The notes under the pieces are model-generated. The model worked only from the letters and a program-made list of their open reading frames with translations. It made no database searches and had not been told where the DNA came from. A program made the position numbers and the translations under genes. Below are positions 1,131 through 63,701 of a stretch of DNA of 64,000 bases, one piece after another; positions within the stretch are counted from its first letter, which is position 1, and each line of letters begins with the position of its first letter. The DNA comes from an uncultured Alphaproteobacteria bacterium (lineage in GTDB: Bacteria > Pseudomonadota > Alphaproteobacteria > CAAHEQ01 > UBA3637). The DNA is taken from assembly GCA_944392785.1 (NCBI GenBank), contig CALXXW010000024.1, positions 9,744 through 73,743 of the forward strand. Reading direction: 5' to 3'.

Positions 1131-1596
1131 AAGCCCCCGTGTTCTGTTGCTAGGCCCCGGGGAAACCCCACCCGAACGCTCAAAAAATGTTCGGGGATTG
1201 ATTGGTCATTTCAGACGCTTAATACTAAGCGGCCAAAGCGACCGGAGCAAAATTATCATTTGCATTTATTTTTTTTAGCGCGATAACGGTGCTACCATGC
1301 CGGATACAAGAGAAAACCTTTACTATGCGTGTCGATCCTGTTTCACCCCCGAAGGCTTTTTTGGTGGAGGTGTCGGGTACCGCCCCCGAGTCCACTACAT
1401 CTATTCCGCTTTTCGTTTAGCATCATAGTCAGCTTGAAACTGACAGAATCATTATATCAGAGCTTTCCTCAAAAGGCAAGAGAAAAATCTTTCAAAACAC
1501 AAGACCATGGGAGAGTGACTGTCAACAAGACAGAAAGAAATCCGTCTTAGTTCTCCCTTTGAACATGGCCGCTGTCACATCAAGCCAATAAGTCTT

Positions 1597-4233
1597 TTAT
1601 ACCAGCTTACCACAGCAATGTTTATACTTCTTACCGGAGCCACAGGGGCAAGGGGCATTACGTGCAATTTTATCATCCGGTTCGGCTACAGACGTGCTGG
1701 GCGCATCAGCCGGGTAAGCTGCCGGTCTATTTTGAGTCGCGTTCACCGCTGGCGTTGCCTGTTGAATTTGGAATTCCATAAAACTGACGCGACGTGTTAT
1801 CCTCTCTCGCACACGCGTTAAAAAGTTTTCGAACAAATGGAAAGCTTCTTGCTTATAGGCATTCAACGGATTTTGTTGGCTATAGAAACGCAACCCGATA
1901 GAAGTTTGCAAAAAATCCAACATTTGCAAATGCTCTTTCCAACTTTGATCGATGACTTGTATCAGTATGCTTTTTTGCACGTCATTTTTAATGTTTTCCG
2001 GCATAATAGAAAACTTTTCTCGGATACTTTCTGCCGATTTTTCTTTCAAACGCTCCACCATTTTTTCTGGTGTTATCCCAGGTTCTCCTACCCATGAAGA
2101 AAAGGGAATATCTAAATTCAACAGCGCAAAAGTCTCACGTCTCAAGGCCTCGGCATCCCAATCTTCGGGAACCGATTTCATCGGTGCCAAGGTATAAACC
2201 AAATTTTCAAGGCAATCTACCCGCATATCCTCAATTGTATCCGCCACAGAGTCTGCCATCATCAATTCACGTCTTTGCTCATAAATGACTTTACGTTGAT
2301 CATTCATCACATCATCGTATTGCAACACATTTTTCCGTTGGTCAAAATGGAAAGCTTCAACCTTTTGTTGCGCTTTAGCGATGGCCTTGGTTATCCAAGG
2401 GCTAACAATGGCCTGTCCATTGGGCATCCCCATGGATTTTAAGATATTACTAATCCGCTCTGTCCCAAAAATACGCATTAAATTATCCTGAAGAGACACA
2501 AAAAATTTCGATAATCCCGGATCTCCTTGTCGACCCGAACGTCCGCGAAGCTGATTATCAATCCGTCGACTCTCGTGGCGTTCTGATCCCAGAACATACA
2601 ATCCTCCCGCAGCCAGAGCAACCTCTCGTCCCTTTTCGATTTCGGCCTTAATTTTAGCTGCCAATTCGGCTTCATCCGCATCAGGATTTTTGGCTTTTTC
2701 TTCCTTAAAACGCATTTCAAAATTACCGCCCAGCTGAATATCTGTACCGCGACCGGCCATATTCGTTGCAATGGTCACGGCGCCGGGCACACCGGCTTGC
2801 GCAACGATTTGAGCTTCTTGTTCATGATGGCGCGCATTCAATACATTGAAGGGTATATCGCTCTTCTTTTTCAACAGATTCGCCAACAACTCTGACTTCT
2901 CGATAGAGGTTGTTCCCACCAAAATCGGTTGATGCCGCTTATGTGCCAAAATAATTTCATCCACAATGGCATTGTATTTTTCCTCATCTGTACGATAGAC
3001 GACATCTTGCTCATCAATACGACCTGAAGGTTTGTTGGGTGGAATGGCAATAACATCCAAATGATATGTGCTGTCAAACTCATTCGCCTCCGTCATCGCC
3101 GTTCCGGTCATCCCTGCCAACTTGGGATACAACCGAAAATAATTCTGGAAAGTGATGGAAGCCAACGTTTGATTTTCCGGCTTAATCTCGACACCTTCTT
3201 TAGCCTCCAGAGCTTGATGCAAACCGTTGGAATAACGACGACCATTCATGATACGTCCCGTAAACTCGTCAATAATCATGACCTCTCCGTTTTTCACGAT
3301 ATAGGCGACATCTTTTTCAAACAGCGTATGAGCCCGTAAGGCTTGCTCCACATGGTGCACATAAGCCAAATTTTGGACATCATATAAAGAACCTTCAATC
3401 ATCCCGGCATCACGCAACATATTTTCGACGAATTCCGTTCCGGCCTCTGTTAATTGGACCGAGCGGTGTTTTTCGTCTTTTTCATAATGCTCGGGCTTTA
3501 AATGCCGCATCAGCTTATCGACGGCAATATATCTCTCGGAAGAATCTTCCGCCTGTCCGGAAATAATAAGAGGTGTTCGTGCTTCATCAATTAAAATAGA
3601 GTCAACCTCATCCACAATAGCATAGTTAAAAGGACGTTGAACCATATCAGCCAACGTAAACCGCATATTATCTCGCAAATAGTCAAACCCTAACTGATTA
3701 TTTGTGGCATAAGTAATGTCGGCCCGATACGCCGCGCGACGTTCATCATCATTTAATCCATCGACAACACACGCAACGGAAAGCCCCAAAAAGCGATAAA
3801 TTTTACCCATCCATTCACTATCACGTTTGGCCAAATAATCATTCACCGTCACCACATGAACACCCTTTCCCGACAAGGCATTTAAATAAGTCGGCAACGT
3901 AGCCACCAGCGTTTTTCCTTCACCCGTGCGCATTTCGGCAATTTTTGCATTGTGCAGAACAATACCGCCCAACAGTTGCACATCAAAAGGGCGTAAGCCT
4001 AATGTACGCCGAGCTCCCTCACGCACAACGGCAAAAGCCTCAACCAACAAGTCGTCCAATGTCTCACCGGCCTGATAGCGTTTTTTGAACTCTTCGGTTT
4101 TCGCCCGTAGTGCGGCATCGTCAAGTGCCGACATTTCTGGCTCAAGCGCATTAATAGCAGCGATTGTCTTATTAAATTTTCTTAAATAACGGTCATTAGC
4201 CGAGCGGAACAAATTTGTTAATTTCATTATCAT
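1597..4233 (-). CDS. secA: preprotein translocase ATPase SecA
   Basis: 878 aa, Walker A GEGKT, DEAD-like motifs, and the C-terminal zinc-binding tail [14 protein letters not shown]. Start ATG and TAA stop verified by hand. Confidence 0.97.
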
Positions 4234-4307: not shown

Positions 4308-5039
4308 TTATTTTTCTATCAAACGTGTCATATCGGCCAACGCTTCGGATTTGGGAGCATAAAAAAGCAGAGGCTGTTGGGCACGAATAGCGTCTTTAAC
4401 CAAGGTATCTCGACGAATAATCGCCTGCAAAGGCGGTGTTTTTTTTAAGAAACTTTCACAAGCCTTCATCAAAGTTGTATACGTGCGCTCTCCCTCTTTT
4501 TCGGAAGCTGCCGCATTCACCAGAATCGACAGCGGGATTTTGTTCTCCAACGTCTCAATTAACGCATAGGCTCCGGCCAAAGCGGTCGGTTCATCAGCCG
4601 TCAAGACAAAAGCTTCTGTCAAATGAGGCATCATAAGTTTCAAAAACCCATCCACACCGGCCGCAAAATCAATCATAACGATGTCATAATGCGTTGCTAA
4701 AATACTTAAATCATCGGCTAACATCTGTTGTTGTCCCTCTGTCAAAGCCCCCAAAACCAAACTTCCGGAACGACCGGCAATGACATCCAAAGGAAGATGC
4801 TCAACCGAACTGACCGCCTGTGTCATGGGACATTTACCAACTAAGATGTCCGCTATATCCACGCGAGGGACCATTCCCAGTTGAACGTCTACATTCGCTT
4901 GCCCGAAAGAACCGTCAAACAACAGCGTTTTATACCCCGCTGATGCAAAAAGCGTCGCTAAAGTGACCGCAACGGTTGTTCGACCGACGCCACCTTTCCC
5001 CGAAACAAGACCGATTATACGAGGGGAAACATGTGTCAT
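4308..5039 (-). CDS. flhG: MinD/ParA-family flagellar number regulator FlhG (FleN). The P-loop Lys is replaced by Arg.
   Basis: Deviant Walker A SGKGGVGRTT (canonical GKGGVGKT), a MinD-like fold, and a 4-nt overlap with the upstream flhF. Confidence 0.75.
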   Translation of the reverse strand: MTHVSPRIIGLVSGKGGVGRTTVAVTLATLFASAGYKTLLFDGSFGQANVDVQLGMVPRVDIADILVGKCPMTQAVSSVEHLPLDVIAGRSGSLVLGALTEGQQQMLADDLSILATHYDIVMIDFAAGVDGFLKLMMPHLTEAFVLTADEPTALAGAYALIETLENKIPLSILVNAAASEKEGERTYTTLMKACESFLKKTPPLQAIIRRDTLVKDAIRAQQPLLFYAPKSEALADMTRLIEK

Positions 5040-5986
5040 TTTAAGCCTCCTTTCAAAAGCAAGGGTTGTCGCATACGATCAGACAAGCTTTCGGCCGTTA
5101 GCGATATCAAAGGAACGGTTTCCATCGCATCTGTCATCAAAGCGGCCAGCGGTATCTGTAATCGATAAGCTATATTCAGCAAACAACCCAAACGATGGAA
5201 AGAATCCGCAAACGTGCCTATTAATACGGTTTGTCGAAACACCAAAAAAGGCTTGACCTGAGCCAAAGCTTCTGATGCATTAAGCCCCAACGAAACCGTC
5301 AACTCAGCCACAGCATCCGATAGATTTGCTGCCAGTTCATGCCAAGTTGTCAATGCTGTCTTTTCTTTTCCTAACTGTCCTGTTGTATCAACATAAATGC
5401 GCCTGTCCGGTGAAATACGCCGCACCAAAAACGATACCTCTGCCGCCGTTTCTGCCGTCAACACCGGCACTTTCAACAAACTGCAAAAAGCCGTCAAATG
5501 TTCCACCGAACCGGGGCGTTTATCTAGCGTAATAACCGTCGCCGGCTTCTTGGCCAATGTATCGGCAACAACCTGTTTTAACAAAGCTGTTGTCTTACCG
5601 CTGGCCGGAGGCCCCATCAAAAAACGGATACGTTCTAACGGTTGTGTAAAGGTCAACAACTGCTCCCAAGCGCTTGCCAGCACATCTTCTGTCGGAAGTT
5701 GAAATCCCTGTTGAAGTCGATGAAGAACATGGCGTGTCAAACTTTCCGATACGCCATGTCGTTTGAGTAAAAGTTGAATAACGGTATTTTGGTTCGGTGT
5801 TTCCTGTCGTCCCAATGCTTTTTTTAAATCCATATCCGATGTCGCATACGGTAAAGCCCCTATCAAACGAATGCGCCCATCGGGCTGACGTTGTGAAGAA
5901 ATAATCACAGCCGCGGCTCCCAACGAGTTGTGGATTAAATCCATCGCTTCAGGAATAGAGGCCGAAACAACCGTTTTCATTCGCAT
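5036..5986 (-). CDS. flhF: flagellar biosynthesis SRP-like GTPase FlhF. The start is set at Met50 of the tracked ORF so that it does not overlap the upstream gene.
   Basis: G1 LMGPPASGKTT, G3 VDTTGQ, and the position between fliF/G and flhG. An SD-like AAGGG lies upstream of the ATG at 5986..5984. Confidence 0.7.
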   Translation of the reverse strand: MRMKTVVSASIPEAMDLIHNSLGAAAVIISSQRQPDGRIRLIGALPYATSDMDLKKALGRQETPNQNTVIQLLLKRHGVSESLTRHVLHRLQQGFQLPTEDVLASAWEQLLTFTQPLERIRFLMGPPASGKTTALLKQVVADTLAKKPATVITLDKRPGSVEHLTAFCSLLKVPVLTAETAAEVSFLVRRISPDRRIYVDTTGQLGKEKTALTTWHELAANLSDAVAELTVSLGLNASEALAQVKPFLVFRQTVLIGTFADSFHRLGCLLNIAYRLQIPLAALMTDAMETVPLISLTAESLSDRMRQPLLLKGGLK

Positions 5987-5991
5987 ATTCA

Positions 5992-7929
5992 CTACCCTTT
6001 TGTCGCAAATGGCGATATTTTTTTGTGATAAATCAATTCTTGCGCCGTTTTGGTAATGGTTGTTTGTGCTCGTTCGATATCGCTCAGACGCGGAGCGCGC
6101 ATTCGTTCCGATTCGCGTATCAAACCGGCCCATACCTGAGGCGGCATATTACGCGCGAAGGCATCACGTATCGCCGTTGTTGCCCCCCGCAAAGCCAAAG
6201 CCGCCATATCACGATTCGTGTGCCGTAAAACCGTCTGAATAGCACTATCCGGCCAGCGCGCAATATCATCAAAACAAATCATGTGATACGCTATTCGCTC
6301 GGCCGATTGAGGTGAGTCACGGTACATATCCGCCATCAATTTTTCTTCACTGGTATGATCCATGGTCCGCAAAATGTCAGAGGCTTTTTCACTACCGGAT
6401 TTAAACCGCGCCTGCAGCATCAATGTATGCAGCTGCTGTGTTAAATCTTGTTCTAATTTCAATCGTTCGGCCGCCGAGATATGCTCTAACTGAGCCAACG
6501 CCTCTAATACCTTAGCGGCTTTTCCGTCAGACAGCAAACTAAGCACTTTGGCAGCCTTGTCATTTGTTAGGTGGTAAAGTATCAAAGCGGTCGTTTCCGG
6601 TTTTTTAGCTTCCAGATAACGCGCCAAAATGGATACATCCAATCGTTGTAATCTTTCCCAAATACTTTCATCACGTCCGCTACATGCCACTTCCATCATC
6701 ATGGCGGCACTTTTTTCCGGTGAGAATACATCTGACAAAACCTGTCGCACACGCGCCTCTGTTCCAAACAAAGCAACAGGCTCTTTAACGGAGCGAATAA
6801 ATGCGCTCAAGACAGAGCGAACACTCTCTGCCGGAACGGCACCCAGTTGGCTCATTAAACGTGACAACGTCCGCACTTCCATTTCGCTGAGACGATGGAA
6901 TATATCACGAATGGTCGTCTCCCCCAAAGCCAGCAATAAAATAGCGGCTTTTTGTTGAGCCGTATACTCTCCGTTGCGGTGGTTTTTGGGGCTGGGTTCA
7001 TATAACCAGTTTTTCAAAAGGGAAAGCGCGGTCTCCGGTTTTTCTCGAAAAAAGCGTTGGATAGCCAGAATATCAGAGGCACTCGGCGTCCGAGCCGACG
7101 AAAACCCGCCGCGTTCTGTGCCCTTCTCAAGCGGCTGAAGCAACGATGCCATCATCGGAAAAATAAAGTGAATCAGCAAAAAAAACGTCAACAACAAACA
7201 GGCGCCCAACAGCACAAAGCGCACCGCCATTTCAACAGACACGGTACGCCAAAAGGAAGGGGGTGCCGCAAAAGGCATATTCTGAATACTTAATGTATCT
7301 CCACGCTCCGGAGAAAAACCGATTAACGCCTCAACCAACTGACGATAGCGTTGCATTTCGGCCGCACCGCGGGGTTGATAAACATAATCTCCGGTTCCTG
7401 TCTTTTTTTGAATACCGTCAATCAAAATACTAACGGATAATCGTTTAACGGCTCCCGAGATGGAAGTCGTTTCTTCGGAGCGTGATGCAACATCATAAGA
7501 GGTTTCCTCTTCTTTTACAACCGACTCATCCACATAAGCCGGTTGTTCCTGCTGACGCATCACCTGACGAACAGCGACTTGCGTGTCGGCCAGTGGCTCT
7601 CGTTTTTGGCGTGTTTCCTGTTGCAAATCCAGCTCTACCTGCACGGTTGCTTCCACATGTCCCTTTCCCAGCGTTTTTTCCAACAAAGCGATGATTTGGG
7701 TCTGAAGGGTATCGGCATAGCGTTGTTGTAATAAAGCATGTTCGGAAAATGAACCGTTTTCCAAGTGCGATAAAGAGGCCGTTTCATTCCAAGAAGCACG
7801 GGGGGTCACATCTGATAAACGCACAAAAGCCGGCACAACATATCCGGCAACGCCCAACAGCGTGGCGGATAGTATCACGACAGCTAATAATCGTATCAAC
7901 TCAGAAGTTTTTATCACGCAATGATACAC
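5992..7929 (-). CDS. fliF: flagellar MS-ring/C-ring fusion protein: a shortened FliF (TM1, RBM3-like periplasmic part, TM2) fused to a full FliG-like domain
   Basis: TM at the N-terminus. A FliF ring-building motif region (ATVQVELDLQQETRQ ... KRLSVSILIDG ... FSPERGDTLSIQN) is followed by a second TM (VRFVLLGACLLLTFFLLIHFIF). Next come ~370 aa with FliG N/M/C-like armadillo segments (QKAAILLLALGETTIRDIFHRLSEMEVRTLSRLM; ALILYHLTNDKAAKVL; C-terminal torque-helix-like region). It is a single uninterrupted ORF with a GTG start directly after an in-frame stop. Confidence 0.7.
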   Translation of the reverse strand: MYHCVIKTSELIRLLAVVILSATLLGVAGYVVPAFVRLSDVTPRASWNETASLSHLENGSFSEHALLQQRYADTLQTQIIALLEKTLGKGHVEATVQVELDLQQETRQKREPLADTQVAVRQVMRQQEQPAYVDESVVKEEETSYDVASRSEETTSISGAVKRLSVSILIDGIQKKTGTGDYVYQPRGAAEMQRYRQLVEALIGFSPERGDTLSIQNMPFAAPPSFWRTVSVEMAVRFVLLGACLLLTFFLLIHFIFPMMASLLQPLEKGTERGGFSSARTPSASDILAIQRFFREKPETALSLLKNWLYEPSPKNHRNGEYTAQQKAAILLLALGETTIRDIFHRLSEMEVRTLSRLMSQLGAVPAESVRSVLSAFIRSVKEPVALFGTEARVRQVLSDVFSPEKSAAMMMEVACSGRDESIWERLQRLDVSILARYLEAKKPETTALILYHLTNDKAAKVLSLLSDGKAAKVLEALAQLEHISAAERLKLEQDLTQQLHTLMLQARFKSGSEKASDILRTMDHTSEEKLMADMYRDSPQSAERIAYHMICFDDIARWPDSAIQTVLRHTNRDMAALALRGATTAIRDAFARNMPPQVWAGLIRESERMRAPRLSDIERAQTTITKTAQELIYHKKISPFATKG

Positions 7930-8000
7930 CTTTTATCTTTCTTAGACCCCACAAAAGATAATATGCCAGACAAAACATTAAAGAAGTGTTAACAAGTTAT

Positions 8001-8297
8001 TTATTTTTTTATCTTTTGAATGACAAGGCGTTGATGAATAACACCGTCTTTAGGATCCCATGCTAATAGCAAGTGATCTGCCTCGGGCGTTTTTACGGCA
8101 AGGCATAAAAAATCACCACAAGAAACCATATTTTCCAAATGTCCCGACACTTTGGGCTGTAATGTTTGAGATGACGATGTTTGCAACTTGCTTTTTTGAA
8201 TACGTTCTGTTATGATAAGCCCCAGTCCGGCAAACCCGGCCAGCAGCATCAAACCAAAAAGAAATGTTAACCATTTTAAAACGACAACAGATTTCAT
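8001..8297 (-). CDS. small membrane protein (98 aa, one N-terminal TM), possibly flagellum-associated or a split-off FliF N-terminal piece
   Basis: MKSVVVLKWLTFLFGLMLLAGFAGLGLII then a ~70 aa soluble part, with a GGGAG SD 5 nt upstream. It lies immediately upstream of fliF/G on the same strand, and only 35 bp separate it from the divergent rluD start. Confidence 0.35.
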   Translation of the reverse strand: MKSVVVLKWLTFLFGLMLLAGFAGLGLIITERIQKSKLQTSSSQTLQPKVSGHLENMVSCGDFLCLAVKTPEADHLLLAWDPKDGVIHQRLVIQKIKK

Positions 8298-8331
8298 GAA
8301 AACTCCCGGAATAAAAGAGGTAAATAAAAAC

Positions 8332-9372
8332 ATGACAGATACACAAGATGACGACATCTTAGAGGGGGAAGTATATCAGAATACAGAGGTCCTTGTCACG
8401 CCAAAAGTACCTGAGACACAAAAAAACTTGCGTCTGGATAAATTTTTAGTCAGTTGCTATCCTCAGTTTTCTCGTAATCAAATGATCCGTCTCATCAAAG
8501 AAGGGGCTGTGTCCGTTGAAGACTGTCCGAGCCGAACTCTTGCTCCCGATGATGAGGTGAAAGTCGGAGAACATTTTAAGATAATCCCCCCCGAGGCCAC
8601 TCCGGCAGATCCCGTTCCGGAAAACATACCTCTGGATATTCTCTATGAGGATAAAGATCTACTGGTCGTCAATAAACCGGCCGGATTAGTTGTTCATCCC
8701 GGTGCCGGGAATACACACGGAACATTGGTTAATGCTCTGTTGGCTCATTGCGGAGATTCGTTATCCGGCATTGGCGGCGTCCGACGTCCCGGTATTGTGC
8801 ATCGCATTGACAAAGATACCAGCGGTATTTTAGTCGTTGCCAAAAATGACTGGGCGCATCGCCACTTGGCAGAACAATTTGCCGAACACACGATTGAACG
8901 CGTCTACCAGGCTTTTGTATGGGGTTTTGTTAAAAACACGACCGGTGTCATCAGTGGTTATATCGGTCGATCGCCGACAAATCGCCAAAAGATGGCTGTT
9001 GTCAAAACGAACGGGAAACATGCCACAACACATTATGAACGCCTGGAGGTCTTTGGAGGGGGCCTTGCTTCTCACATTCAATGTACGTTAGAGACGGGAC
9101 GCACACATCAAATTCGCGTACACATGGCATCTATCGGACATTCTTTAATCGGTGATACGGTTTACGGTATCGTCCCCTACCATGCTCCGGAGGCATTGAA
9201 ATTCTTTCCCAGACAGGCTTTACATGCCGGCTTTTTAGGGTTCATTCATCCGACGACGGAAGAACGTATGACTTTTGAAGTGCCGTTGCCTGAAGATATG
9301 CAGACTCTGTTGAATAACCTAAGATCGCTTTCGTGTGTCGATCAGACGGATCACTTTACGCATCAAGGTTGA
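8332..9372 (+). CDS. rluD: 23S rRNA pseudouridine synthase, RluA family (RluD/RluC-like) with N-terminal S4 domain
   Basis: S4-like LDKFLVSCYPQFSRNQMIRLIKEGAV, and the catalytic HRIDKDTSG motif within VNKPAGLVVHPGAG...GIVHRIDKDTSGILVVAK. AAGAGG SD before the ATG at 8332. Confidence 0.85.
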   Translation: MTDTQDDDILEGEVYQNTEVLVTPKVPETQKNLRLDKFLVSCYPQFSRNQMIRLIKEGAVSVEDCPSRTLAPDDEVKVGEHFKIIPPEATPADPVPENIPLDILYEDKDLLVVNKPAGLVVHPGAGNTHGTLVNALLAHCGDSLSGIGGVRRPGIVHRIDKDTSGILVVAKNDWAHRHLAEQFAEHTIERVYQAFVWGFVKNTTGVISGYIGRSPTNRQKMAVVKTNGKHATTHYERLEVFGGGLASHIQCTLETGRTHQIRVHMASIGHSLIGDTVYGIVPYHAPEALKFFPRQALHAGFLGFIHPTTEERMTFEVPLPEDMQTLLNNLRSLSCVDQTDHFTHQG

Positions 9373-10335
9373 AAAAGGATATTTCTGAAAATCTTCCGGT
9401 TTCACAAAAATACCCTCGGACAAAGGATTTGTTTGAACCGATAGCGTATAAATGTCCAGTGTTAACTTGACATGTGTGAACACGTGCACGATTTGTTTTC
9501 CCAAAGGAAAGTCTCGACTGAACAAAGGAGACTCTTCTTCATAGCCCCACGGGAACTCAAATAAACCGGATAACAGGCCCTTACCGGATCGTTGACGTAT
9601 TAAAAAGCCGCCTTCTTGATTCTGAACCAGCCATAGGGAACCCTTTTTCTCTTTTTTAGGTGGCTTAACAATCAGCGGAATCTGCTCAGCAATACCCTGT
9701 TGACAGGCCAAGCAATACTGGCGCCAAGGACATATCGGACAAGAAGGTTTTGAAGGAGTACAAACGGTTGCTCCCAAATCCATAATGGCCGAAGCATAAT
9801 CAGCGCCCTTATCCGGAGGGGTAAAGCGCACGGCTTTTTGATAAATTTCCTCCCGCTTAACGGCATGTGTTAAGCCATAAAGACGAGCCATAATACGGAT
9901 AACATTACCATCCACAACCGTTTCGGGCATATTAAACGCAAAGCAACAAATGCTGGAAGCTGTATAGGGTCCTATCCCCGGAAGCTTTAAAAGAGTCTCC
10001 CGATCGGCCGGAATTTTTCCTTGGTATTGTTGCACCAACACCTGAGCACACGCATGGATTTTTTTAGCCCGTGTATAATATCCCAATCCCTGCCAAGCCA
10101 ACAACACTTTTTCCAAATCAGCGGCAGCCAATGTTTCAATGGTTGGGAAAAGCTGCATCCAGCGAACAAAATAATCAACAACTGTTTTAACCGTTGTTTG
10201 TTGCAGCATAATTTCCGAGATCCAAACCGCATAGGGATCAAAATGTGCTCCCCCTTTGACACGCCAAGGCATATCCCGACCGTGATGATAAAACCACGTC
10301 AATAATTCAACGGCACACGTTCTTTCAGATACCAT
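9319..10335 (-). CDS. mutY: A/G-specific adenine DNA glycosylase MutY
   Basis: HhH-GPD core (LPGIGPYTASSI), the 4Fe-4S loop CTPSKPSCPICPWRQYC, and a C-terminal MutT-like domain. Its 3' end overlaps the rluD 3' end by 54 nt (convergent). Confidence 0.9.
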   Translation of the reverse strand: MVSERTCAVELLTWFYHHGRDMPWRVKGGAHFDPYAVWISEIMLQQTTVKTVVDYFVRWMQLFPTIETLAAADLEKVLLAWQGLGYYTRAKKIHACAQVLVQQYQGKIPADRETLLKLPGIGPYTASSICCFAFNMPETVVDGNVIRIMARLYGLTHAVKREEIYQKAVRFTPPDKGADYASAIMDLGATVCTPSKPSCPICPWRQYCLACQQGIAEQIPLIVKPPKKEKKGSLWLVQNQEGGFLIRQRSGKGLLSGLFEFPWGYEEESPLFSRDFPLGKQIVHVFTHVKLTLDIYTLSVQTNPLSEGIFVKPEDFQKYPFSTLMRKVIRLIDTRKRS

Positions 10336-27461: not shown

Positions 27462-30400
27462 TTAAAACCATCCGGTTGAACGATTACAACTTCCCGTTAA
27501 CCAGTTATAGTATCGACCCTTACAAGCCTGACAAGATTCATACGAGGTTTGTGTATCTCTTTTCTCCGTGCATGCCACACACTTGTTGGCGCTGGTTGAA
27601 AAGAACTGCCCTGTCGGACAAACACATGTTTTCCCGTTGCCGAATCCTTGCCCAGAGGGGCAAAGACGACACCTCTTATTATACCAGTAGCGCTGAGGAC
27701 ATTTTTGACACTCTTCCCATGTTGTATTGGACGCCGCTGATGATAACGAGCAAAGAGCACACATATTCGTTCCATAGAAAAAGCGATTATCACAAGACGA
27801 ACATTCGTCCTCGGTGGCTCTGATAGTTCCGTTAACCGAGCAGGATTGACATTGATTGGAAGTATTCAAAATTTCCCCAGCCGCACATGTACATCCCAAC
27901 CCATCTGAGGTAGCATTTGTGCCGTTGGGACACAGGTAGGACCGAGCATCCGATGGTTTCCAATAACGATTAGGACACTGCCGACTTTCATCCTGTGCAA
28001 CGGCTATAGCCGATGTGTAGTCACAAGAAATACAGGCTCCATCCGAAGAGCGCCACAGACGCTCACCCTGACCACAAGACATACATTCGGCTTGCGTTGT
28101 CGCATGACTTGCTGTTTTACTTGTACAACTCAAGCATGTATTCGCCGCATAGGAAAAATACTGGCCCTCCGGACAAACACATCCCAGCCCATCCGCTGTT
28201 GCCTTTGTTCCGCTGGGACAAATATAGCTATACCCCTTATCCGATCGCCAATAACGATTGGAGCAACGCCGACTTTCTTCATATGAGGCCTTAATGGCTA
28301 CGGAACGGCTACACAGCGAACACGTATCATCGTCGGCTAAAAAGCGTATATTATCTCCACAACCATGGCAAGCGGCCTCAGTGGTTTTAGGCGTATTTGA
28401 TGCGGCACACAAATACGATTTACCATCCTCTGCAAAATAGCGTTTCCCTATGCCGCAGCTGGCACTTGCCTGCTCGGATGAGACAACGGCCGTTGTGATA
28501 TCACAATCAACACATGTTTTATTGCTGGCATTAAAGAAAGTCTCTCCGGCAGAACAGGAACACGAAAGCCCATCTTCTGCCACCAAAGAACCATTCGGGC
28601 ATAGGATGCACCGATCCGTCTGCCAATAACGATTCTGACATGTTTGACAGGCCTCTAACGTCGCATAGCGATTGACCGTATCCGCACAAGAATAGCACTT
28701 ATTATCTTGCGCCGAGAAAAACGCATCTTGCGCGCATCCGCTACAAACAAGGCCGTCTTCACTGGTTGTATTGCCGGTGCATACCAGGCACATATTGTCC
28801 TTTTCTCGCCAATATCGACCTTCACAGACATGACAAGCCCCAAAAGTGGCTTGTTTCGATGCCGTATTTTCACAAGGATAACACTTGCCGTCAGCATAGG
28901 AAAAATACTCGCCCGCCGGACAAACGCATCCCAACCCATCCGCCGTTGCCTTTGTTCCGGTGGGGCACATATAACTATACCCATTATCCGATCGCCAATA
29001 GCGATTTTGACACCGTTGCGAATTTTCCAAAGATGTCGCAAATCTTCCCGTGTATTGACACGCATAACACTGATTCTTGGACGACAGCGTCCGCACATTC
29101 GTCCCACAAGAGAAACAAGCCTCGGCTTCTGTGACAGGATAAGAGGTTGTTTGGGTACATAGATAGGAATAAGAGTTGCTAGCCATATAGCGCACGCCCG
29201 TACCGCAACTGGCACTGGCATCGGCATAAGTCAAAATCGCTGTCGTAGTATCACAAGCCGCACAAACTGTCGGCTTTGCTTGATTAAAGAATGTCTCACC
29301 TATCGAGCAAGAACAAAACAATCCATCTTCAGAGCCTATTCCACCCTCACCACACAGCATACAAGAATTATTTTTCCAATATCGATTTCCGCAGGCTTGG
29401 CACTCAGCCAAGGTTGTTGTCCGAGCCCGAGTCTCTGAGCAGGGATAGCATTTATTGTCGGCATAAGAAAACATATACCCTTCGTCACACTCACAGGCCT
29501 CTCCGGATTCCGAAGCCTTCATTCCGGTCGGGCAAAGGCGACATTGTCCTGTTTTGCTTTCCCAATACCGATTGTCGCACATTTGACACTCTTGAAGCGT
29601 TGAGACGACTTTCTTCGTATTCGTGCATTTGAAGCACGCATTATTTGCCTGAGCGGTAAACCATCCCGGACATGAACTGCAACTGAGATTCTCTGCCAGA
29701 ATGGTACTTTCCTTCAGTTCACTACACGAATAGCAACTTCCATTTTTATCCATTAAATGATTTGTATCTTGGCAAACACATCCCGTTCCCTCCTCATTGG
29801 GACGAGCCGAATAAGCACACGAGTAGCATGTTCCATCCGTATCCATCCAACCTTTTTCCAAATCGCAGACACAAGATTGCGTTTTTTCATCCCATATGGC
29901 TCCGATTGTTTGACACCGATGACAATTCGGGTACTCACCGAAGAAGTAGATCTGAGTGTTGCACTCACATGTTTGTGTTTCCGCATTATAACGCCCGGCA
30001 CGATATTCGGCCGAATAAGCAGGAGAGGAAACGGTATACACAGCCTCAGGACACATACTATCACAGGTTTTTGTGTCATAATTCCAAGCTTGATCTGCAC
30101 CGGCACATAACTGACATGAACCATCGGCTTTGGTATAATAGCGAGCGGCTTCATTACAGACGCATTGCCCATCTTTTTCCGTAAATCCCTTCGATTCATC
30201 ACATCCGGGCAAGCGACACCAGTTATTGATCATTTGAAGTCCCTCAGGACAAGCACATTCACCATTACTTTGTATCACCTGTCCCCGATCACAGAACCAA
30301 TCGCAACGCCCGTCTTGTTTTTCCTTTCCAAAGGGACATACACAATTTTCATCGGCATCAATCAAGCCACAGATATTTTGTCCCAATGCTTTTTCCGGAT

Positions 30401-32267
30401 CTCCGAACACACACATATTATTGCTGTCACAGGAAGCACCTTCTACCGGACACTTGTAGCCTACAATTTCAGATTGTAGAGAATAGGAAATGTTAACTTC
30501 TGTCGAACCAGTTTCAGTACACGCGCCGGTATACACCCATGTATTCGGAGAATTGACAGCATAAACTCTGGAACCGGCAGAACATCCGACAGCATTCATA
30601 TCAATATAAACCGGAAATTTCAGTGTATAATTGGCATATCCGACTTGATGAATCGTATCATCCGTATAATGCCCGCCGTTCGGCATGTCATTATAGGTAT
30701 TGTATTGCGTACAGCGACAACCGGATAATCCATAGTCATAGTTGTGATACCCATTCCATCCGTCCAAGAATCCGACCCGAATACGGCCTTCTAACGTATC
30801 GACACGTACCCATTTATCATGCTCGGTGCAGAAGACCATATTCCCATTGGCTGTGAAGGGTTCAGAGTTCGGGATACACGCAATTTTTTCACAAGCCCCC
30901 AAACGACCATAATATCCTTTCTTTGTATCACATATACAAGCCTGTGTATCCGGATCATATATGGCATCATCCGGGCACTTAACACATCCGTTAGCCGTTA
31001 AGTAATATCCATTGGCCGTATCACAGATACAAGCACCTGTTGCATCTGTTATATATCCAGCTTCTTGAGGACATTGACAAACACCGGCTTCATTCTTTTT
31101 AGGCAGAACACACATACAAACGCCGTTGACGATTTCAAACCCCAAAGAGGTATCACACACACATTTTCCATCTCCGTCCAGATAAAATCCATTCTGCGTA
31201 TCACACGTGCAGATACCCTCCGGTGAACACATCTCATAACTATCGCAATCCTCTTTCTTCAGACATTCAACGCATTTTTTGATTGGAGCCCCCGTTGTGT
31301 TATCTGTTCCATCGACTAAATAAGGCCGCTCTTTAGGGCATAGGCATTGATTTTGAAAGCCGTCTTTGATAATCTCTACAAACCCATATTGAGTGGGACA
31401 CACACATTGATCTCCTGTATCCAAATAATTGGATAAACAAGCACATTTCTGAGCCCCTGTCAGCCCTGCAGCACCATCCATTCGGTCGGGGTCCGTACAT
31501 TGACACGCACACGCATACGGATCCGGATACATATGCTGAGGATTGTCACATGCCGGCACTTGCGCTGCATCAAACACGCATAATCCCCCTATTTCAACCG
31601 AGCAATCCGGACACCCCGAGGTATTGTTATCCGACGGGTATCCCAGAGCATCCGTAAAAACAATCCCCACATCCAACGTCTCTTCCTCTTCGTCTATACC
31701 CCCCATGCAAATCCGACGCACGATGCTTTTGTCGGCATCATCTTTAATCTGACTTTCCGACCAAACCATAAAAGGCTCCCGTGGCATCTGTTGCATGGGT
31801 TCCAGCAACAAAACATAATCGTATGAAATGTTGGACAGTAAAATATCTGAGCAAATTTTCGTGGAAAATTGATTCAAATTAACGATCATGCCACGGCCAT
31901 CTTTCAACATACTGGCCGATAAAACCGTATCCCCGACGGACGCTTGAAAGGCTTCTTTATATTGAGAGCCGGTATATGCCGGAACATCTGAAATATAACC
32001 GTCCCGATTTAATAAATGAAGCCATTCAAGCTCTACCTGTTCCTTTTCTGAAAGAGCACGATAATCAGCCTGTTGCTGCTCTAAATAATGTCCCGTCACG
32101 ACACCGGCTACCGTTTTAGAAATTAAATCTTCTACCGTTGCAATTTCATGTTTGCGGTTGGAATACTGCCACCCCCAAAACACGGCTATGGATAAAAGCC
32201 CTATTAAAAACAATACAATTAAAAGCTCGGTCGTGGTTGTCCCTTTTTCATCTGTCTGTTTTAACAT
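27462..32267 (-). CDS. giant (1601 aa) type IV prepilin-like protein with a huge cysteine-rich tandem-repeat ectodomain (ephrin-receptor-like / furin-like / VSP-like repeats)
   Basis: N-terminus MLKQTDEKG|TTTTELLIVLFLIGLLSIAVFWGW, which is a class III (prepilin peptidase) signal: short basic leader ending in Gly, Glu at +5, and a ~20 aa hydrophobic helix. AGGAGA SD 6 nt upstream of the ATG at 32267. The remainder carries ~250 Cys in repeated units such as CxCDTxxGYYL..GxC, and also C.NRYW....Y.CP.GT.AT.DGLGC.CP.G.YFSY. TAA stop verified at 27462. Confidence 0.8.
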   Translation of the reverse strand: MLKQTDEKGTTTTELLIVLFLIGLLSIAVFWGWQYSNRKHEIATVEDLISKTVAGVVTGHYLEQQQADYRALSEKEQVELEWLHLLNRDGYISDVPAYTGSQYKEAFQASVGDTVLSASMLKDGRGMIVNLNQFSTKICSDILLSNISYDYVLLLEPMQQMPREPFMVWSESQIKDDADKSIVRRICMGGIDEEEETLDVGIVFTDALGYPSDNNTSGCPDCSVEIGGLCVFDAAQVPACDNPQHMYPDPYACACQCTDPDRMDGAAGLTGAQKCACLSNYLDTGDQCVCPTQYGFVEIIKDGFQNQCLCPKERPYLVDGTDNTTGAPIKKCVECLKKEDCDSYEMCSPEGICTCDTQNGFYLDGDGKCVCDTSLGFEIVNGVCMCVLPKKNEAGVCQCPQEAGYITDATGACICDTANGYYLTANGCVKCPDDAIYDPDTQACICDTKKGYYGRLGACEKIACIPNSEPFTANGNMVFCTEHDKWVRVDTLEGRIRVGFLDGWNGYHNYDYGLSGCRCTQYNTYNDMPNGGHYTDDTIHQVGYANYTLKFPVYIDMNAVGCSAGSRVYAVNSPNTWVYTGACTETGSTEVNISYSLQSEIVGYKCPVEGASCDSNNMCVFGDPEKALGQNICGLIDADENCVCPFGKEKQDGRCDWFCDRGQVIQSNGECACPEGLQMINNWCRLPGCDESKGFTEKDGQCVCNEAARYYTKADGSCQLCAGADQAWNYDTKTCDSMCPEAVYTVSSPAYSAEYRAGRYNAETQTCECNTQIYFFGEYPNCHRCQTIGAIWDEKTQSCVCDLEKGWMDTDGTCYSCAYSARPNEEGTGCVCQDTNHLMDKNGSCYSCSELKESTILAENLSCSSCPGWFTAQANNACFKCTNTKKVVSTLQECQMCDNRYWESKTGQCRLCPTGMKASESGEACECDEGYMFSYADNKCYPCSETRARTTTLAECQACGNRYWKNNSCMLCGEGGIGSEDGLFCSCSIGETFFNQAKPTVCAACDTTTAILTYADASASCGTGVRYMASNSYSYLCTQTTSYPVTEAEACFSCGTNVRTLSSKNQCYACQYTGRFATSLENSQRCQNRYWRSDNGYSYMCPTGTKATADGLGCVCPAGEYFSYADGKCYPCENTASKQATFGACHVCEGRYWREKDNMCLVCTGNTTSEDGLVCSGCAQDAFFSAQDNKCYSCADTVNRYATLEACQTCQNRYWQTDRCILCPNGSLVAEDGLSCSCSAGETFFNASNKTCVDCDITTAVVSSEQASASCGIGKRYFAEDGKSYLCAASNTPKTTEAACHGCGDNIRFLADDDTCSLCSRSVAIKASYEESRRCSNRYWRSDKGYSYICPSGTKATADGLGCVCPEGQYFSYAANTCLSCTSKTASHATTQAECMSCGQGERLWRSSDGACISCDYTSAIAVAQDESRQCPNRYWKPSDARSYLCPNGTNATSDGLGCTCAAGEILNTSNQCQSCSVNGTIRATEDECSSCDNRFFYGTNMCALCSLSSAASNTTWEECQKCPQRYWYNKRCRLCPSGQGFGNGKTCVCPTGQFFSTSANKCVACTEKRDTQTSYESCQACKGRYYNWLTGSCNRSTGWF
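27810..29315 (-). repeat. intragenic tandem duplication (~750 bp unit, 2 copies, diverged but with locally near-identical stretches) inside the giant Cys-rich gene
   Basis: The protein module CSCS(I/A)GETFFN...NRYWRSD(N/K)GYSY(M/I)CP(T/S)GTKATADGLGCVCP(A/E)G(E/Q)YFSYA... occurs twice ~251 aa apart. Opposite-strand shadow ORFs at 28013..28294 and 28766..29134 are ~80% identical to each other at a ~750 nt offset. Confidence 0.7.
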
Positions 32268-32277
32268 TTTCTGTCTC

Positions 32278-33978
32278 CTATTCGTTTTCGGGTGGTATAT
32301 ACATCGGCCAATTGCCTTGAACAACATCATCTAATGACTGCAAAGAGGCCCCCATTAAAGACCTGTAAATCCAATAATTGACGATGATACGCTCAACAAA
32401 ACTGCGTGTTTCCTTAGAAGGAATACTTTCCAAGAACAATAACGGATCATCGTTATAGTTCATTTTCTTTTTCCATTTCATCAAATTTCCCGGCCCGGCA
32501 TTATAGGCAACCGCCGTAAAAATCAAATTATTCTGCACCGCCTCCGATGCCATCAAACGCAACAAATAATTTTGCCCCAAAGCCAGGTTATAAGCCGGTT
32601 CTTTCAGCTTTTGTCGCTTCCAGGGCATTTGTAAAAGCGCCGCCTGCTCCCGTCCCGTCTGAGGCATAATCTGCATCAACCCCAATGCCCCCATGGCACT
32701 TTCGGCACGTTTATTAAAACAAGACTCCTGCCGCACAAAGGCAAAGACCAGCGCTTTGTCCACCTTCCATCCATCCTGAGGCGTCCAATTAGGAGCCGGA
32801 TACCGTGCCTCATCCCCATTTAATGTTCCCGCAATTCCCAATAAATCATCCGCAAAACCATTTTTTTGCGAAATCATCAACAAAATACCTTGAGCTTCTG
32901 TATCTGCCTCCAGATACAACTTAGCCAACTCTTTTTGGGCCCACTCATCTGCACCGATTTGTCGCAAGGCATAAAAGCGTGTCAAAGCCGGATGAGAAAA
33001 ATCTCCGATAACATCATCACTGGGTGTTGCCGGTTCATCCCAAACATGAGACAAATCTTGTCCCAACATGCGCATCGCCAGCAAGCCATAGAACGTCCGA
33101 GGGAAAGAGGCTGCCTGCTCCAAATAAGCCCCCACCGCCTGATATTTTCCCTGTTTTAAAAGAGAACGAGCCGCCCAAACCGCTCCGGCGTTTTTAAGCA
33201 ACGGGTAAGCCGTTTTTGCCTTTGCCACCTTTTCAAAGTAATCCCCTGCCTGCGGATAATTTTCCTGTCGCCATGAGACCAATCCGGCTGTCCACCAGGC
33301 TAACGGGATTTCCATTCCAGAATCCAAAACCGGTCTTAACTGTTCCATCGCCAATAAGTCGGCATCATCTATGAAATATGAAAAAGCCAAGGCTGTACGC
33401 GCCAATAATAAATCTCTTTTTGACAACAGTTTTTTGGTCGTTTTCTCTTCGATAACACGTTTAGCATTTAACGTTTTGCCTGCCAAAATATAACGTTCGA
33501 TTTGACGCATAATCCGTTGCGCCTTTTGACGATTAGCCGCATTTAGATAGGAAAAAGATAATCCGCGAATCAAATCAATCGGCTCGATACGTTGAACACC
33601 CAAACATGCTCCTGAATTTCCGCCGAAAATACCGCGCGGACGCGGCGGCAATTTAGCTTTTTTTTGAACACCCAAGGCATAGACATCACTGGCAACGGCC
33701 AGATCACTGTATTTATTCAACCAATTGACGATCTCTGTCCCTTTTGTGCGGTATCCTTTTGAAAAATAACGATCGTATAAAACATATCCCATCAACAGTT
33801 TATCTTTTATTGTCCCCTCGACTTTTTTAGCCGTCTTAAAATCATTTGCTTGATGCGCCTTTAGGATCCGCTGATAGGCGGCGACATCCCTATCGCTCAA
33901 AATAGCCGGCCCCGCCACCGTCGGCAAGGCAAAGCCCAAAAGCAAAAGGATATGACAAATAAAATGAATGACGCGCAA
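32278..33978 (-). CDS. slt: soluble lytic murein transglycosylase (Slt70-like; superhelical N-domain + family 1 LT domain)
   Basis: Signal peptide. The catalytic ES motif in VRQESCFNKRAESAMGALGLMQIMPQTG, and AYNAGPGN. Its TAG stop at 32278..32280 overlaps the SD of the giant prepilin-like gene, 10 nt before that gene's ATG. Confidence 0.85.
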   Translation of the reverse strand: MRVIHFICHILLLLGFALPTVAGPAILSDRDVAAYQRILKAHQANDFKTAKKVEGTIKDKLLMGYVLYDRYFSKGYRTKGTEIVNWLNKYSDLAVASDVYALGVQKKAKLPPRPRGIFGGNSGACLGVQRIEPIDLIRGLSFSYLNAANRQKAQRIMRQIERYILAGKTLNAKRVIEEKTTKKLLSKRDLLLARTALAFSYFIDDADLLAMEQLRPVLDSGMEIPLAWWTAGLVSWRQENYPQAGDYFEKVAKAKTAYPLLKNAGAVWAARSLLKQGKYQAVGAYLEQAASFPRTFYGLLAMRMLGQDLSHVWDEPATPSDDVIGDFSHPALTRFYALRQIGADEWAQKELAKLYLEADTEAQGILLMISQKNGFADDLLGIAGTLNGDEARYPAPNWTPQDGWKVDKALVFAFVRQESCFNKRAESAMGALGLMQIMPQTGREQAALLQMPWKRQKLKEPAYNLALGQNYLLRLMASEAVQNNLIFTAVAYNAGPGNLMKWKKKMNYNDDPLLFLESIPSKETRSFVERIIVNYWIYRSLMGASLQSLDDVVQGNWPMYIPPENE

Positions 33979-62417: not shown

Positions 62418-63701
62418 ATGAATCATTTACGCAAACCGGAGCTTCTTTTACCGGCTGGTTCTTTGGAGCGCTTAAAGACCGCTTTTTTATACGGAGCCGA
62501 TGCCATTTATGCCGGCATGCCGGGTGTTTCACTTCGTAATAAAACATCTTTTACGATGGATGATATGCAAGAAGGTATCACCTATGCGCATACGTTGGGT
62601 AAAAAGGTATATCTGACAATTAATTTATTTACACACAATCACGATTTAGAGCGACTGGAAGCCTTTATCAGTCACCTTTCCGACCTTAATCCCGACGGTG
62701 TTATTGTTGCTGATCCCGGCGTATTTGGTTTACTTAAACAACGTCTTCCGCAACTGCCTTTACATATTTCAACCCAAGCCAATGTCTGCTCCAGCCTAAC
62801 CGTCCGGTTTTGGAAAGAACAAGGCGCGGCTCTTTGCGTGTTGGGACGAGAGGTTCCTTTGAAGGAAATCAAGGAAATTCGAGAAGACTGTCCCGATATT
62901 CGTCTTGAAACCTTTATTCACGGAGCTCTGTGTGTCAGCTATTCGGGACGCTGTCTTCTCTCTAATTTTATGACCGGACGCAGTGCTAACAAAGGGAATT
63001 GTGCGCATGCTTGCCGTTGGAAGTATCACCTGTATACGGGGCCGGATGAAGATCGGGCATACTACCTAGAGGAAGAAACGCGCCCCGGAGAGCTGATGCG
63101 TATTGATGAAGATGAACACGGCACGTATATTATGAATTCTCGTGATTTATGCTGGATGCCTCGCCTGGACGAGATATTACCGATTGGCATTGATTGCTTT
63201 AAAATTGAAGGACGCAATAAATCGGAATATTATGCCGCCATCACGGCACGCGCTTATCGCCAAGCCATTGATGATTGGTTTCAAGATCCGGAACATTGGA
63301 GCTCTGAACCATATGTTGCCGAGTTAATGACGCTGCAATCACGTGGTTGGACGGTTGGTTTTCTGGACGGGAATGCGGGACCCGAAGCACAAAATTATGA
63401 TGTTTCGGCCAGTACGGGAGCATGGCGCTATGCCGGTCTTGTTCGCGGCGTTAGCGAAAACGGCTTGCGTATGGAAATTAAGCATAAAATATCTCGCGGT
63501 ATGGTTTTAGAGTTTTTATCACCCTATCAATTCCAGCCCATTCGTATAACCGTCAAAGATTTTTATGATGCTCGCACGGGCAATATGGCTGAAAACCTGT
63601 CTTCCGGACATTTGGGGCAGGCTATTGACATTCCTCTTTCCCCCGATGTCATAAGGCTTTTACCGCCTCTTTCCGTCGCACGAACGCACCTATCAGATTA
63701 A
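62418..63701 (+). CDS. peptidase U32 family protein (427 aa)
   Basis: ELLLPAGSLERLKTAFLYGADAIYAG, FIHGALCVSYSGRCLLS and CAHACRW form the canonical U32 core. Confidence 0.85.
   Translation: MNHLRKPELLLPAGSLERLKTAFLYGADAIYAGMPGVSLRNKTSFTMDDMQEGITYAHTLGKKVYLTINLFTHNHDLERLEAFISHLSDLNPDGVIVADPGVFGLLKQRLPQLPLHISTQANVCSSLTVRFWKEQGAALCVLGREVPLKEIKEIREDCPDIRLETFIHGALCVSYSGRCLLSNFMTGRSANKGNCAHACRWKYHLYTGPDEDRAYYLEEETRPGELMRIDEDEHGTYIMNSRDLCWMPRLDEILPIGIDCFKIEGRNKSEYYAAITARAYRQAIDDWFQDPEHWSSEPYVAELMTLQSRGWTVGFLDGNAGPEAQNYDVSASTGAWRYAGLVRGVSENGLRMEIKHKISRGMVLEFLSPYQFQPIRITVKDFYDARTGNMAENLSSGHLGQAIDIPLSPDVIRLLPPLSVARTHLSD

Follow-up and report, generated by a model that had tools for sequence, protein, structure and literature searches.

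The 64,000-nucleotide (nt) stretch of contig CALXXW010000024.1 analyzed here (GenBank assembly GCA_944392785.1, positions 9,744 to 73,743 of the forward strand; hereafter, the window) comes from an uncultured Alphaproteobacteria bacterium and carries, on its minus strand, a gene in which a shortened FliF is fused in frame to a complete FliG. The coding sequence occupies 5992..7917(−), starts with GTG at 7917 and specifies a protein of 641 amino acids (aa), which consists of a first transmembrane (TM) segment, a single RBM3/β-collar domain, a second TM segment, the FliF tail and a full FliG with its N, M and C domains; RBM1 and RBM2 are absent. The core of the flagellar rotor is built from FliF and FliG, and the gene bears on how many of their parts are truly needed and on what becomes of them after motility has been lost. 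The reading that we favor, with a probability of about 0.55, is that this fusion forms a flagellum-derived ring serving as a static, non-rotating and non-secreting scaffold, with FlhF- and FlhG-like proteins and a small TM protein as its partners.

Residue numbers throughout follow the 645-aa numbering of the full-length open reading frame (ORF), 5992..7929(−), which begins at an alternative GTG at 7929. In-frame stop codons lie 2 and 5 codons 5' of this GTG and therefore make a longer N-terminus impossible, as a preliminary description of this DNA had argued from an in-frame upstream stop. The second GTG, at 7917 (MIKTSEL...), is the likely real start, judging from gene callers on near-identical contigs and from the N-termini of the relatives, whose consensus is M-x-K-T-x-E-L-I-R-L. 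In the Pfam search, the protein matched YscJ_FliF_C (PF08345) at aa 83–220 (E 7e-23, 82 bits, covering the profile from 1 to 147 of 147), FliG_N (PF14842) at aa 323–419 (E 1.6e-24), FliG_M (PF14841) at aa 434–504 and FliG_C (PF01706) at aa 537–638 (E 1.2e-25), with all four matches exceeding the gathering scores and lying far above chance, and YscJ_FliF (PF01514), the RBM1/RBM2 profile, was unmatched at E<=1. A hydrophobicity scan located hydrophobic segments at aa 8–38 and 229–265, and the AlphaFold2 (AF2) model placed TM helices at aa 8–39 and 232–264; the fusion thus has the two TM segments expected of FliF. Pfam, hydrophobicity and the AF2 model together bear out the initial description of a single ORF with TM1, an RBM3-only FliF, TM2 and a full FliG, and the matches to FliG_N, FliG_M and FliG_C settle that the C-terminal part is FliG.

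From its N-terminus, the protein passes, always on the minus strand, through TM1 (aa 8–39; 7813..7908), the periplasmic RBM3 or S-ring domain of FliF with a shortened β-collar hairpin (aa 60–220; 7270..7752; assigned from Pfam, PDB matches, AF2 and Foldseek), TM2 (aa 229–264; 7138..7245) and the C-terminal cytoplasmic helices of FliF that make up its FliG_N-binding tail (aa 284–312, ...PETALSLLKNWLYEP; 6994..7080; assigned from an alignment with 8z4d and from AF2). The FliG portion follows, with an N-terminal domain (aa 323–420; 6670..6963; supported by PF14842 and by PDB and Foldseek matches), a middle domain in which KKPE...A replaces EHPQ...R (aa 431–508; 6406..6639) and a C-terminal domain with altered torque-helix charges and the family-specific residues PP596–597 and W600 (aa 537–638; 6016..6321). 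In the AF2 model, which was built on the family alignment and has a mean predicted local distance difference test score (pLDDT) of 80, the RBM3 core comprises a helix (60–87), a long β-hairpin (92–125/140–170), a second helix (189–203) and a strand (212–217). Disordered linkers follow TM1 and TM2, only ~20 disordered residues separate TM1 from RBM3, two tail helices span aa 284–296 and 298–310, and the FliG part (324–634) is all-helical.

Comparison with experimentally determined structures gave the same picture. The best PDB sequence match of the fusion was 8z4d, an engineered Vibrio FliF-FliG fusion, against which aa 111–268 align with FliF RBM3b/TM2, aa 289–320 with the FliG-binding tail and aa 323–630 with FliG; the FliF tail helices that bind FliG_N are present in the fusion, and their binding is predicted. 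When the model was compared with the PDB by Foldseek, full-length FliG chains (8wo5, 3hjl and 8umd) were matched at E 1e-15 to 1e-14 and RBM3/S-ring chains of Salmonella and Vibrio at E 1e-10 to 1e-8 (TMt 0.54–0.61), with nothing matched for RBM1/RBM2. The collar insertion is ~58 residues long in the fusion and ~110 in Salmonella, the correspondence being by position. The protein falls below the equivalog cut-offs of both TIGR00206 (FliF; 48.9 vs 129.75 bits) and TIGR00207 (FliG; 144.1 vs 226.7 bits).

By all comparative indications, the fusion is a bona fide natural gene that is vertically inherited and under purifying selection. A 99%-identical protein is present on contigs of three other assemblies from different samples, and a 76%-identical fusion of 647 aa lies on an independent contig (locus L001) with identical neighbors. 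HMMER, run exhaustively against 1.84 billion representative proteins, recovered ~30 further clusters (50% identity) of the fusion, which are 24–40% identical to the window protein, measure about 544–650 aa and align to it either from end to end or starting at the RBM3 core; the ORF is intact in every lineage sampled. N-terminally complete members consist of a TM segment, ~130–190 periplasmic residues and another TM segment followed by FliG, and PF01514 was absent from every member of the short family tested. Genomes carrying the fusion include the source genome, CASEYR01, CALXUR01 and GCA_965319345.1, and the NCBI annotation of family members is solely "hypothetical protein." A contig scan with the single fusion protein as query returned no matches, and one with a 3-sequence fusion alignment returned two GTDB loci.

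An assembly or sequencing artifact, in which a frameshift or a lost stop codon merged fliF with fliG, is conceivable in principle, since many canonical loci have the two genes in frame with one stop codon between them and a single error can fuse them. We nevertheless assign this explanation practically no weight, because the fusion recurs in independent assemblies and in relatives of 76% and 24–40% identity, across which the junction is continuous and alignable, and because a frameshift cannot remove RBM1 and RBM2 or account for their being missing.

The fusion also carries the marks of selective maintenance. Its ratio of nonsynonymous to synonymous substitution rates (dN/dS) is 0.06–0.08, compared with 0.04–0.10 for the neighboring housekeeping gene rluD; saturation of synonymous sites makes the value from the L001 comparison approximate, and the 99%-identical strain differs at 14 positions only, of which 11 are synonymous and 3 non-synonymous. 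Conservation across the family is highest in the RBM3 core (29–35% mean pairwise identity) and lowest in the collar (13% identity, 39% gaps), which is variable and often deleted. Five residues, W424, A448, A579, L580 and W600, are invariant and specific to the fusion family. The preliminary description had presented the fusion as a real in-frame gene and natural FliF-FliG fusions as rare; the independent assemblies, the relatives and the dN/dS values uphold a natural gene, and it is the rarity that has to be qualified, given a sizable unannotated family of ~30 clusters at 50% identity.

Other FliF-FliG arrangements were encountered in the databases. Three full-length natural fusions, P0048 (895 aa), P0087 (869 aa) and P0147 (787 aa), combine PF01514 and PF08345 with all three FliG domains. 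A form still more reduced than the fusion described here is seen in P0050 (451 aa) and P0058 (440 aa), where two adjacent TM segments lead into the FliF tail and the FliG domains N, M and C with no periplasmic domain; these two are in effect membrane-anchored FliG. At the canonical loci L019, L020, L022, L023, L024 and L025, which came from a metagenome scan, fliF and fliG are in the same frame with only the fliF stop codon between them, and a single point mutation would therefore yield a full-length fusion.

To place the functional sites of FliG, the FliG part of 30 fusions was aligned with 116 canonical FliG representatives, with torque-helix sites numbered as in E. coli FliG. The EHPQR motif is nearly universal among the canonical proteins (E in 115, P in 110, Q in 113 and R in 111 of the 116); the window protein has K-K-P-E...A at this site (K442-K443-P444-E445...A477), and a third of the fusions (10/30), including P0014, P0028, P0031 and P0035, retain E-Y-P-Q...R. 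The lineages with an adjacent fliN, P0014 and P0035, are among these. Within the torque helix, K264 (K or R in 115/116) corresponds to R581 of the window protein and is not conserved in the family, and R281 (R in 109/116) corresponds to Q598 and is kept in 2/30 fusions. The site of D288, acidic in 113/116 canonical proteins, is R605 in the window protein and acidic in 7/30 fusions; that of D289, acidic in 111/116, is E606 and acidic in 13/30 (E in 11, D in 2). Only P0035 retains all three of R281, D288 and D289. Where canonical proteins read "NMS-x-RAA," the fusion family has a near-invariant "NMPP-x-x-W," with W600 present in 29/30.

The roles of individual charged torque-helix residues, and that of EHPQR in FliM binding, were reportedly established by Lloyd and Blair in 1997 and by Brown et al. 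in 2002. The torque helix docks MotA/B via complementary electrostatics (PMC11087270). The census shows that the lineage of the window has lost both the EHPQR FliM-binding motif and the stator-contacting torque-helix charges, and the newly conserved W600 and PP596–597 suggest that the partner of FliG may have changed. With its motor residues lost, the fusion is not best read as a means of fixing the stoichiometry of MS-ring to C-ring in a working motor, the role previously proposed for it.

The two genes downstream of the fusion point in a similar direction. An FlhF-like signal recognition particle-type GTPase of 316 aa (5036..5986(−)) starts 5 nt past the fusion stop codon and has an intact G1 motif, DTTG as G3 and TFAD in place of TKLD as G4. 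It is followed by an FlhG/MinD-like ATPase of 243 aa (4308..5039(−)), whose gene overlaps the flhF stop codon and whose Walker A motif reads KGGVGRT, so that GKT has become GRT by replacement of the P-loop Lys with Arg; additionally, DGS replaces DGD. Among the relatives, L009 and L012 have an intact GKT in FlhG and keep TKLD in FlhF with DTPA as G3, L013 has lost the signature Lys of FlhG (KGG to GGG) and has TRLD in FlhF, and the Walker A motif is wholly degenerate in L008 and L011. Both flhF and flhG are under purifying selection (dN/dS 0.12–0.19), a pattern that fits retention as binding or scaffolding proteins and not as canonically cycling NTPases. The earlier impression of a remodeled flagellar module with a degenerate FlhG is thus confirmed by the GRT of FlhG, the TFAD of FlhF and the lost FliM-binding and stator residues of FliG.

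Immediately upstream of the fusion lies an ORF that from its conserved start measures 98 aa (8001..8297(−)) and is a conserved partner gene; its product is predicted to have one TM helix and a four-stranded β domain of ~45 aa. Homologues occupy the same position at L001, L005, L006, L007, L009 and L012, 11 relatives were recovered from databases with a profile, and the ORF is missing in the sublineages L008, L013 and L014. Residues G21, K37, C60, G61, C65 and P82 are invariant, and dN/dS is 0.27. The model, of moderate confidence (pLDDT 72), shows a long TM helix followed by a four-stranded β-meander, the soluble part being free of helices. Pfam and NCBIfam assigned the protein to no family, FliF/SctJ included, and Foldseek comparison with the PDB gave only matches with E>0.2, the local ones being to single blades of β-propellers.

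This small protein had initially been suggested to be the detached TM1/RBM1-like portion of FliF. The suggestion of a split-off piece finds no support, because TM1 remains in the fusion and because the RBM fold is α-β-β-α-β, whereas the small protein is an all-β meander that matches no FliF/SctJ profile. It is better described as a real, conserved partner gene that probably encodes a lineage-specific accessory membrane protein. Known flagellar membrane proteins were also considered as candidates. The cytoplasmic domain of FipA is helical. The small ORF has no Pfam match to FipA (DUF2802, a partner of FlhF; PMC11620751), and its soluble part is predicted to be all-β; FipA was rejected on these grounds, as were FliO and FliL, for neither of which was profile support found.

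The surroundings of the fusion place it in a recurrent genomic context. The pseudouridine synthase gene rluD (8332..9372(+)), which is divergently oriented, anchors the synteny across the clade, and secA (1597..4233(−)) often provides a downstream anchor, as it also does at L012, L015, L016 and L017. Just downstream of secA lies a two-piece alphaproteobacterial tmRNA (1132..1483(−); RF01849, 229.8 bits), from which we conclude that the host is an alphaproteobacterium; the fusion-bearing relatives carry the GenBank label "uncultured Alphaproteobacteria bacterium." Across the fusion loci, RluD is 57–70% identical and the fusion 27–38% identical. The similarity of RluD indicates that the loci come from related organisms, and the fusion evolves faster than housekeeping genes.

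Four arrangements were found in this clade: rluD followed by the small ORF, the fusion, flhF, flhG and secA in the window, L001, L009 and L012; rluD followed by the fusion, fliN, flhF and flhG in L013 and L014; rluD followed by the fusion, an flhG-like gene or remnant and secA in L008, L015, L016 and L017; and rluD followed by the small ORF, the fusion and then unrelated genes in L005, L006 and L007. The P0035 lineage, which keeps EYPQ...R and the R/D/D residues of the torque helix, lies outside the rluD-linked clade; there, in a neighborhood of housekeeping genes, the fusion is followed by a 124-aa ORF, fliN and an FlhG-like gene with a degenerate P-loop (L010 1702..5046; L011 10001..13357). 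This lineage may stand at a stage of lesser reduction or have a minimal rotor that still works. The fusion is the sole gene common to all loci, while FliN, FlhF, FlhG and the small ORF are variable, and the locus looks as though an uncultured alphaproteobacterial clade has been paring it down stepwise. Searches of the 64-kb window, including tblastn for FliN, turned up no further flagellar gene, and the ±10 kb flanks of the relatives added only fliN, in L013/L014 and L010/L011.

Such stepwise gene loss, together with the eroded canonical motifs of FliG, FlhF and FlhG, would also be expected if the locus were a non-functional relic, the decaying remnant of a lost flagellum with no selected role. 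The ORF, however, is intact in every lineage sampled with a dN/dS of 0.06–0.08, the family has invariant residues of its own (W424, A448, A579, L580 and W600), and it has been kept over evolutionary distances that leave RluD just 57–70% identical. We therefore consider decay without function very improbable; the data on selection and conservation essentially refute it.

The ring might alternatively be a leftover of the flagellum that now serves as an accessory platform of a non-flagellar type III secretion system or of another envelope machine, a role suggested earlier for FliF-FliG(M) of Chlamydiaceae. W600 and PP596–597, newly conserved residues of the surface that suggest a changed partner, would be consistent with this proposal. 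Secretion genes, of type III systems or otherwise, adjoin the locus in none of the ~15 contexts examined, however, and the chlamydial protein differs in keeping an RBM2-like domain and a FliG_M-like domain only, as opposed to RBM3 and a full FliG here; we thus regard a role in secretion as improbable.

A more serious competitor is that the fusion is the working MS-ring and rotor of a highly divergent flagellum, the other genes of which lie elsewhere in the genome. The organism would then either do without the functions of RBM1 and RBM2 or obtain them from a separate protein, perhaps the small TM protein or an SctJ-like lipoprotein; the stator would have co-evolved with the altered torque helix, and the fusion would hard-wire a 1:1 ratio of FliF to FliG. 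Several observations are in keeping with this possibility: engineered full-length fusions support motility in Salmonella and assemble into rings in Vibrio (PMC10941966; 8z4d), purifying selection acts on every FliG domain as well as on the FliF tail and RBM3, the flagellar placement genes flhF and flhG are co-transcribed with the fusion, and relatives keep fliN and EYPQ...R, with P0035 keeping the torque-helix charges as well. On the other hand, the rod-holding collar varies or is missing among family members, the window lineage has lost the near-invariant R281, D288/D289 and EHPQR, sublineages have lost FliN, FlhF and FlhG independently while the fusion stayed, the catalytic motifs of FlhF and FlhG are eroded, and, fliN aside, other flagellar genes were seen in no flank examined. 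On balance, we hold a functioning flagellum to be possible and clearly less likely than a static scaffold.

According to the scaffold reading that we prefer, RBM3 would drive self-assembly into an inner-membrane S-ring with a short collar, made up of ~33–34 subunits. Each subunit would carry one covalently tethered FliG, whose FliG_N would be docked by the subunit's own FliF tail, resulting in a membrane ring and a cytoplasmic FliG ring at 1:1. The FlhF- and FlhG-like NTPases, with their eroded catalytic motifs, and the small β-domain TM protein would be partners of this ring, the cytoplasmic face of FliG, with the invariant Trp600 and PP596–597, would bind some other partner, and the ring would be retained as a static membrane or polar scaffold. 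We consider a static platform the most likely outcome because the protein lacks the seat of the export gate (the RBM2 ring), because its collar would be dispensable and because it has no canonical FliM and MotA interfaces. More tentatively, and at somewhat less than even odds, we speculate that the uncultured Alphaproteobacteria clade and at least one other lineage have exapted the S-ring/FliG ring into a new non-rotating, non-secreting membrane organelle unrelated to motility. Its components, on the same tentative footing, would be the single RBM3-FliG fusion, a novel one-TM β-domain partner and catalytically eroded FlhF and FlhG, and it might act, for example, as a polar landmark or as an envelope-organizing ring.

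Some considerations weigh against the scaffold. Genes for FlhA/B, FliPQR, FliI, MotAB and the rod, hook and filament, or even a second canonical fliF/fliG pair, may lie elsewhere in the genome, and purifying selection on all FliG domains and on the FliF tail is expected of a working rotor too. One third of the family (P0014, P0028 and P0031 among them) keeps EYPQ...R, some members keep an adjacent fliN, and P0035 keeps R281/D288/D289, from which it follows that the architecture as such need not preclude a C-ring or stator contact; the stator, for its part, may have changed in step with the torque helix. That the protein forms rings, and with what stoichiometry and location, is inferred from work on Salmonella and Vibrio, and the alternative function is hypothetical.

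The family amounts to a natural experiment in which an RBM3 ring and a complete FliG have been welded together 1:1 without the export-gate housing and without the canonical stator and FliM contacts, and it has been kept under strong purifying selection across deep divergence. If the fusion does drive a flagellum, the minimal MS-ring would have to be redefined, and RBM1/2 and the torque-helix charges would be dispensable or replaceable; if it is non-flagellar, it would be a clear case of exaptation of the rotor into another cellular structure. The chlamydial precedent would then be extended to free-standing Alphaproteobacteria associated with gut and sludge. Additionally, the fusion is an attractive minimal, single-polypeptide construct for structural work on how MS-ring and C-ring are coupled.

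Further features of the window concern expression and lifestyle. The longest rluD ORF (ATG at 8212) shares 86 nt with the small ORF of the other strand, and the start at 8332 used by gene callers leaves ~35 nt between the divergent genes, so that the promoter of the operon of small ORF and fusion must sit within the 5' end of rluD. The best σ70-like match near the locus is at 8399..8370, and scanning the surroundings of the locus for promoters and terminators yielded no excess of sites over shuffled sequence. In L012, an inserted gene for a Cys-rich repeat protein of 532 aa (8241..9839) separates the small ORF from the fusion; a 1622-aa ORF of the window (27462..32330(−)), which has no Pfam domain, resembles this protein by tblastn (22–26% identity, repeated). 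The window also encodes the bifunctional aldehyde/alcohol dehydrogenase AdhE and two U32-family peptidases (23160..25934(+), 37186..39450(+) and 62418..63701(+)). The U32 family includes the O2-independent ubiquinone hydroxylases UbiU/UbiV, and these genes suggest an anaerobic or microaerobic lifestyle. Such a lifestyle fits the origin of the metagenome-assembled genomes holding MBQ9739268.1, MBR6674689.1 and MBO7257661.1, which, judging from their accession and locus-tag series, are presumably animal-associated (gut or rumen).

In the literature, we found neither an RBM3-only FliF fused to a full FliG nor this alphaproteobacterial locus described, and nothing specific on flagella in RF32-like or Holosporales-like gut Alphaproteobacteria. 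The fusion shares with canonical FliF (TIGR00206; PF01514 and PF08345) the two TM segments around an RBM3/β-collar and the FliG_N-binding helices, and with canonical FliG (TIGR00207) the three armadillo-type domains N, M and C and the genetic linkage to flhF and flhG. Unlike canonical FliF, however, it lacks RBM1/RBM2 and has a periplasmic part of ~190 instead of ~400 aa with a shorter collar, the structure that houses the proximal rod (PMC11739650). It also differs from the canonical pair in being one polypeptide, in scoring below both TIGRFAM equivalog cut-offs and in having lost EHPQR and the torque-helix charges.

The isolated RBM3 fragment of Salmonella (6sd1, 8ftf and 8zdt) has the same periplasmic content and alone assembles into a 33/34-mer S-ring with collar, but it is a soluble laboratory construct, whereas the RBM3 of the natural fusion is anchored in the membrane on both sides and carries FliG. 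Engineered FliF-FliG fusions likewise form rings, the full-length ones allowing motility in Salmonella and ring formation in Vibrio (PMC10941966). In these constructs (Salmonella; Vibrio alginolyticus FliFG, 8z4d/8z4g), the order of the parts is the same, with the FliF tail leading straight into FliG_N; they have complete RBM1–3 and canonical motor residues and support motility, in contrast to the natural fusion, which lacks RBM1/2 and the motor residues.

The closest natural parallel is the FliF-FliG protein of Chlamydiaceae (CT719-type; Bergeron 2016, PMC4768692), which measures ~330 aa, combines an RBM2-like domain and one further RBM with a FliG_M-like domain only and lacks the SpoIIIAG-like RBM3 domain (PMC4768692). 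Both are natural fusions with few flagellar genes around them, in which a shortened FliF retains two TM segments and a reduced periplasmic region. Compared by its published description, the chlamydial protein differs from the fusion studied here, which has 641 aa, RBM3 only, the FliF tail and a full FliG N, M and C and belongs to Alphaproteobacteria; the window fusion is thus nearly a mirror image of the chlamydial protein.

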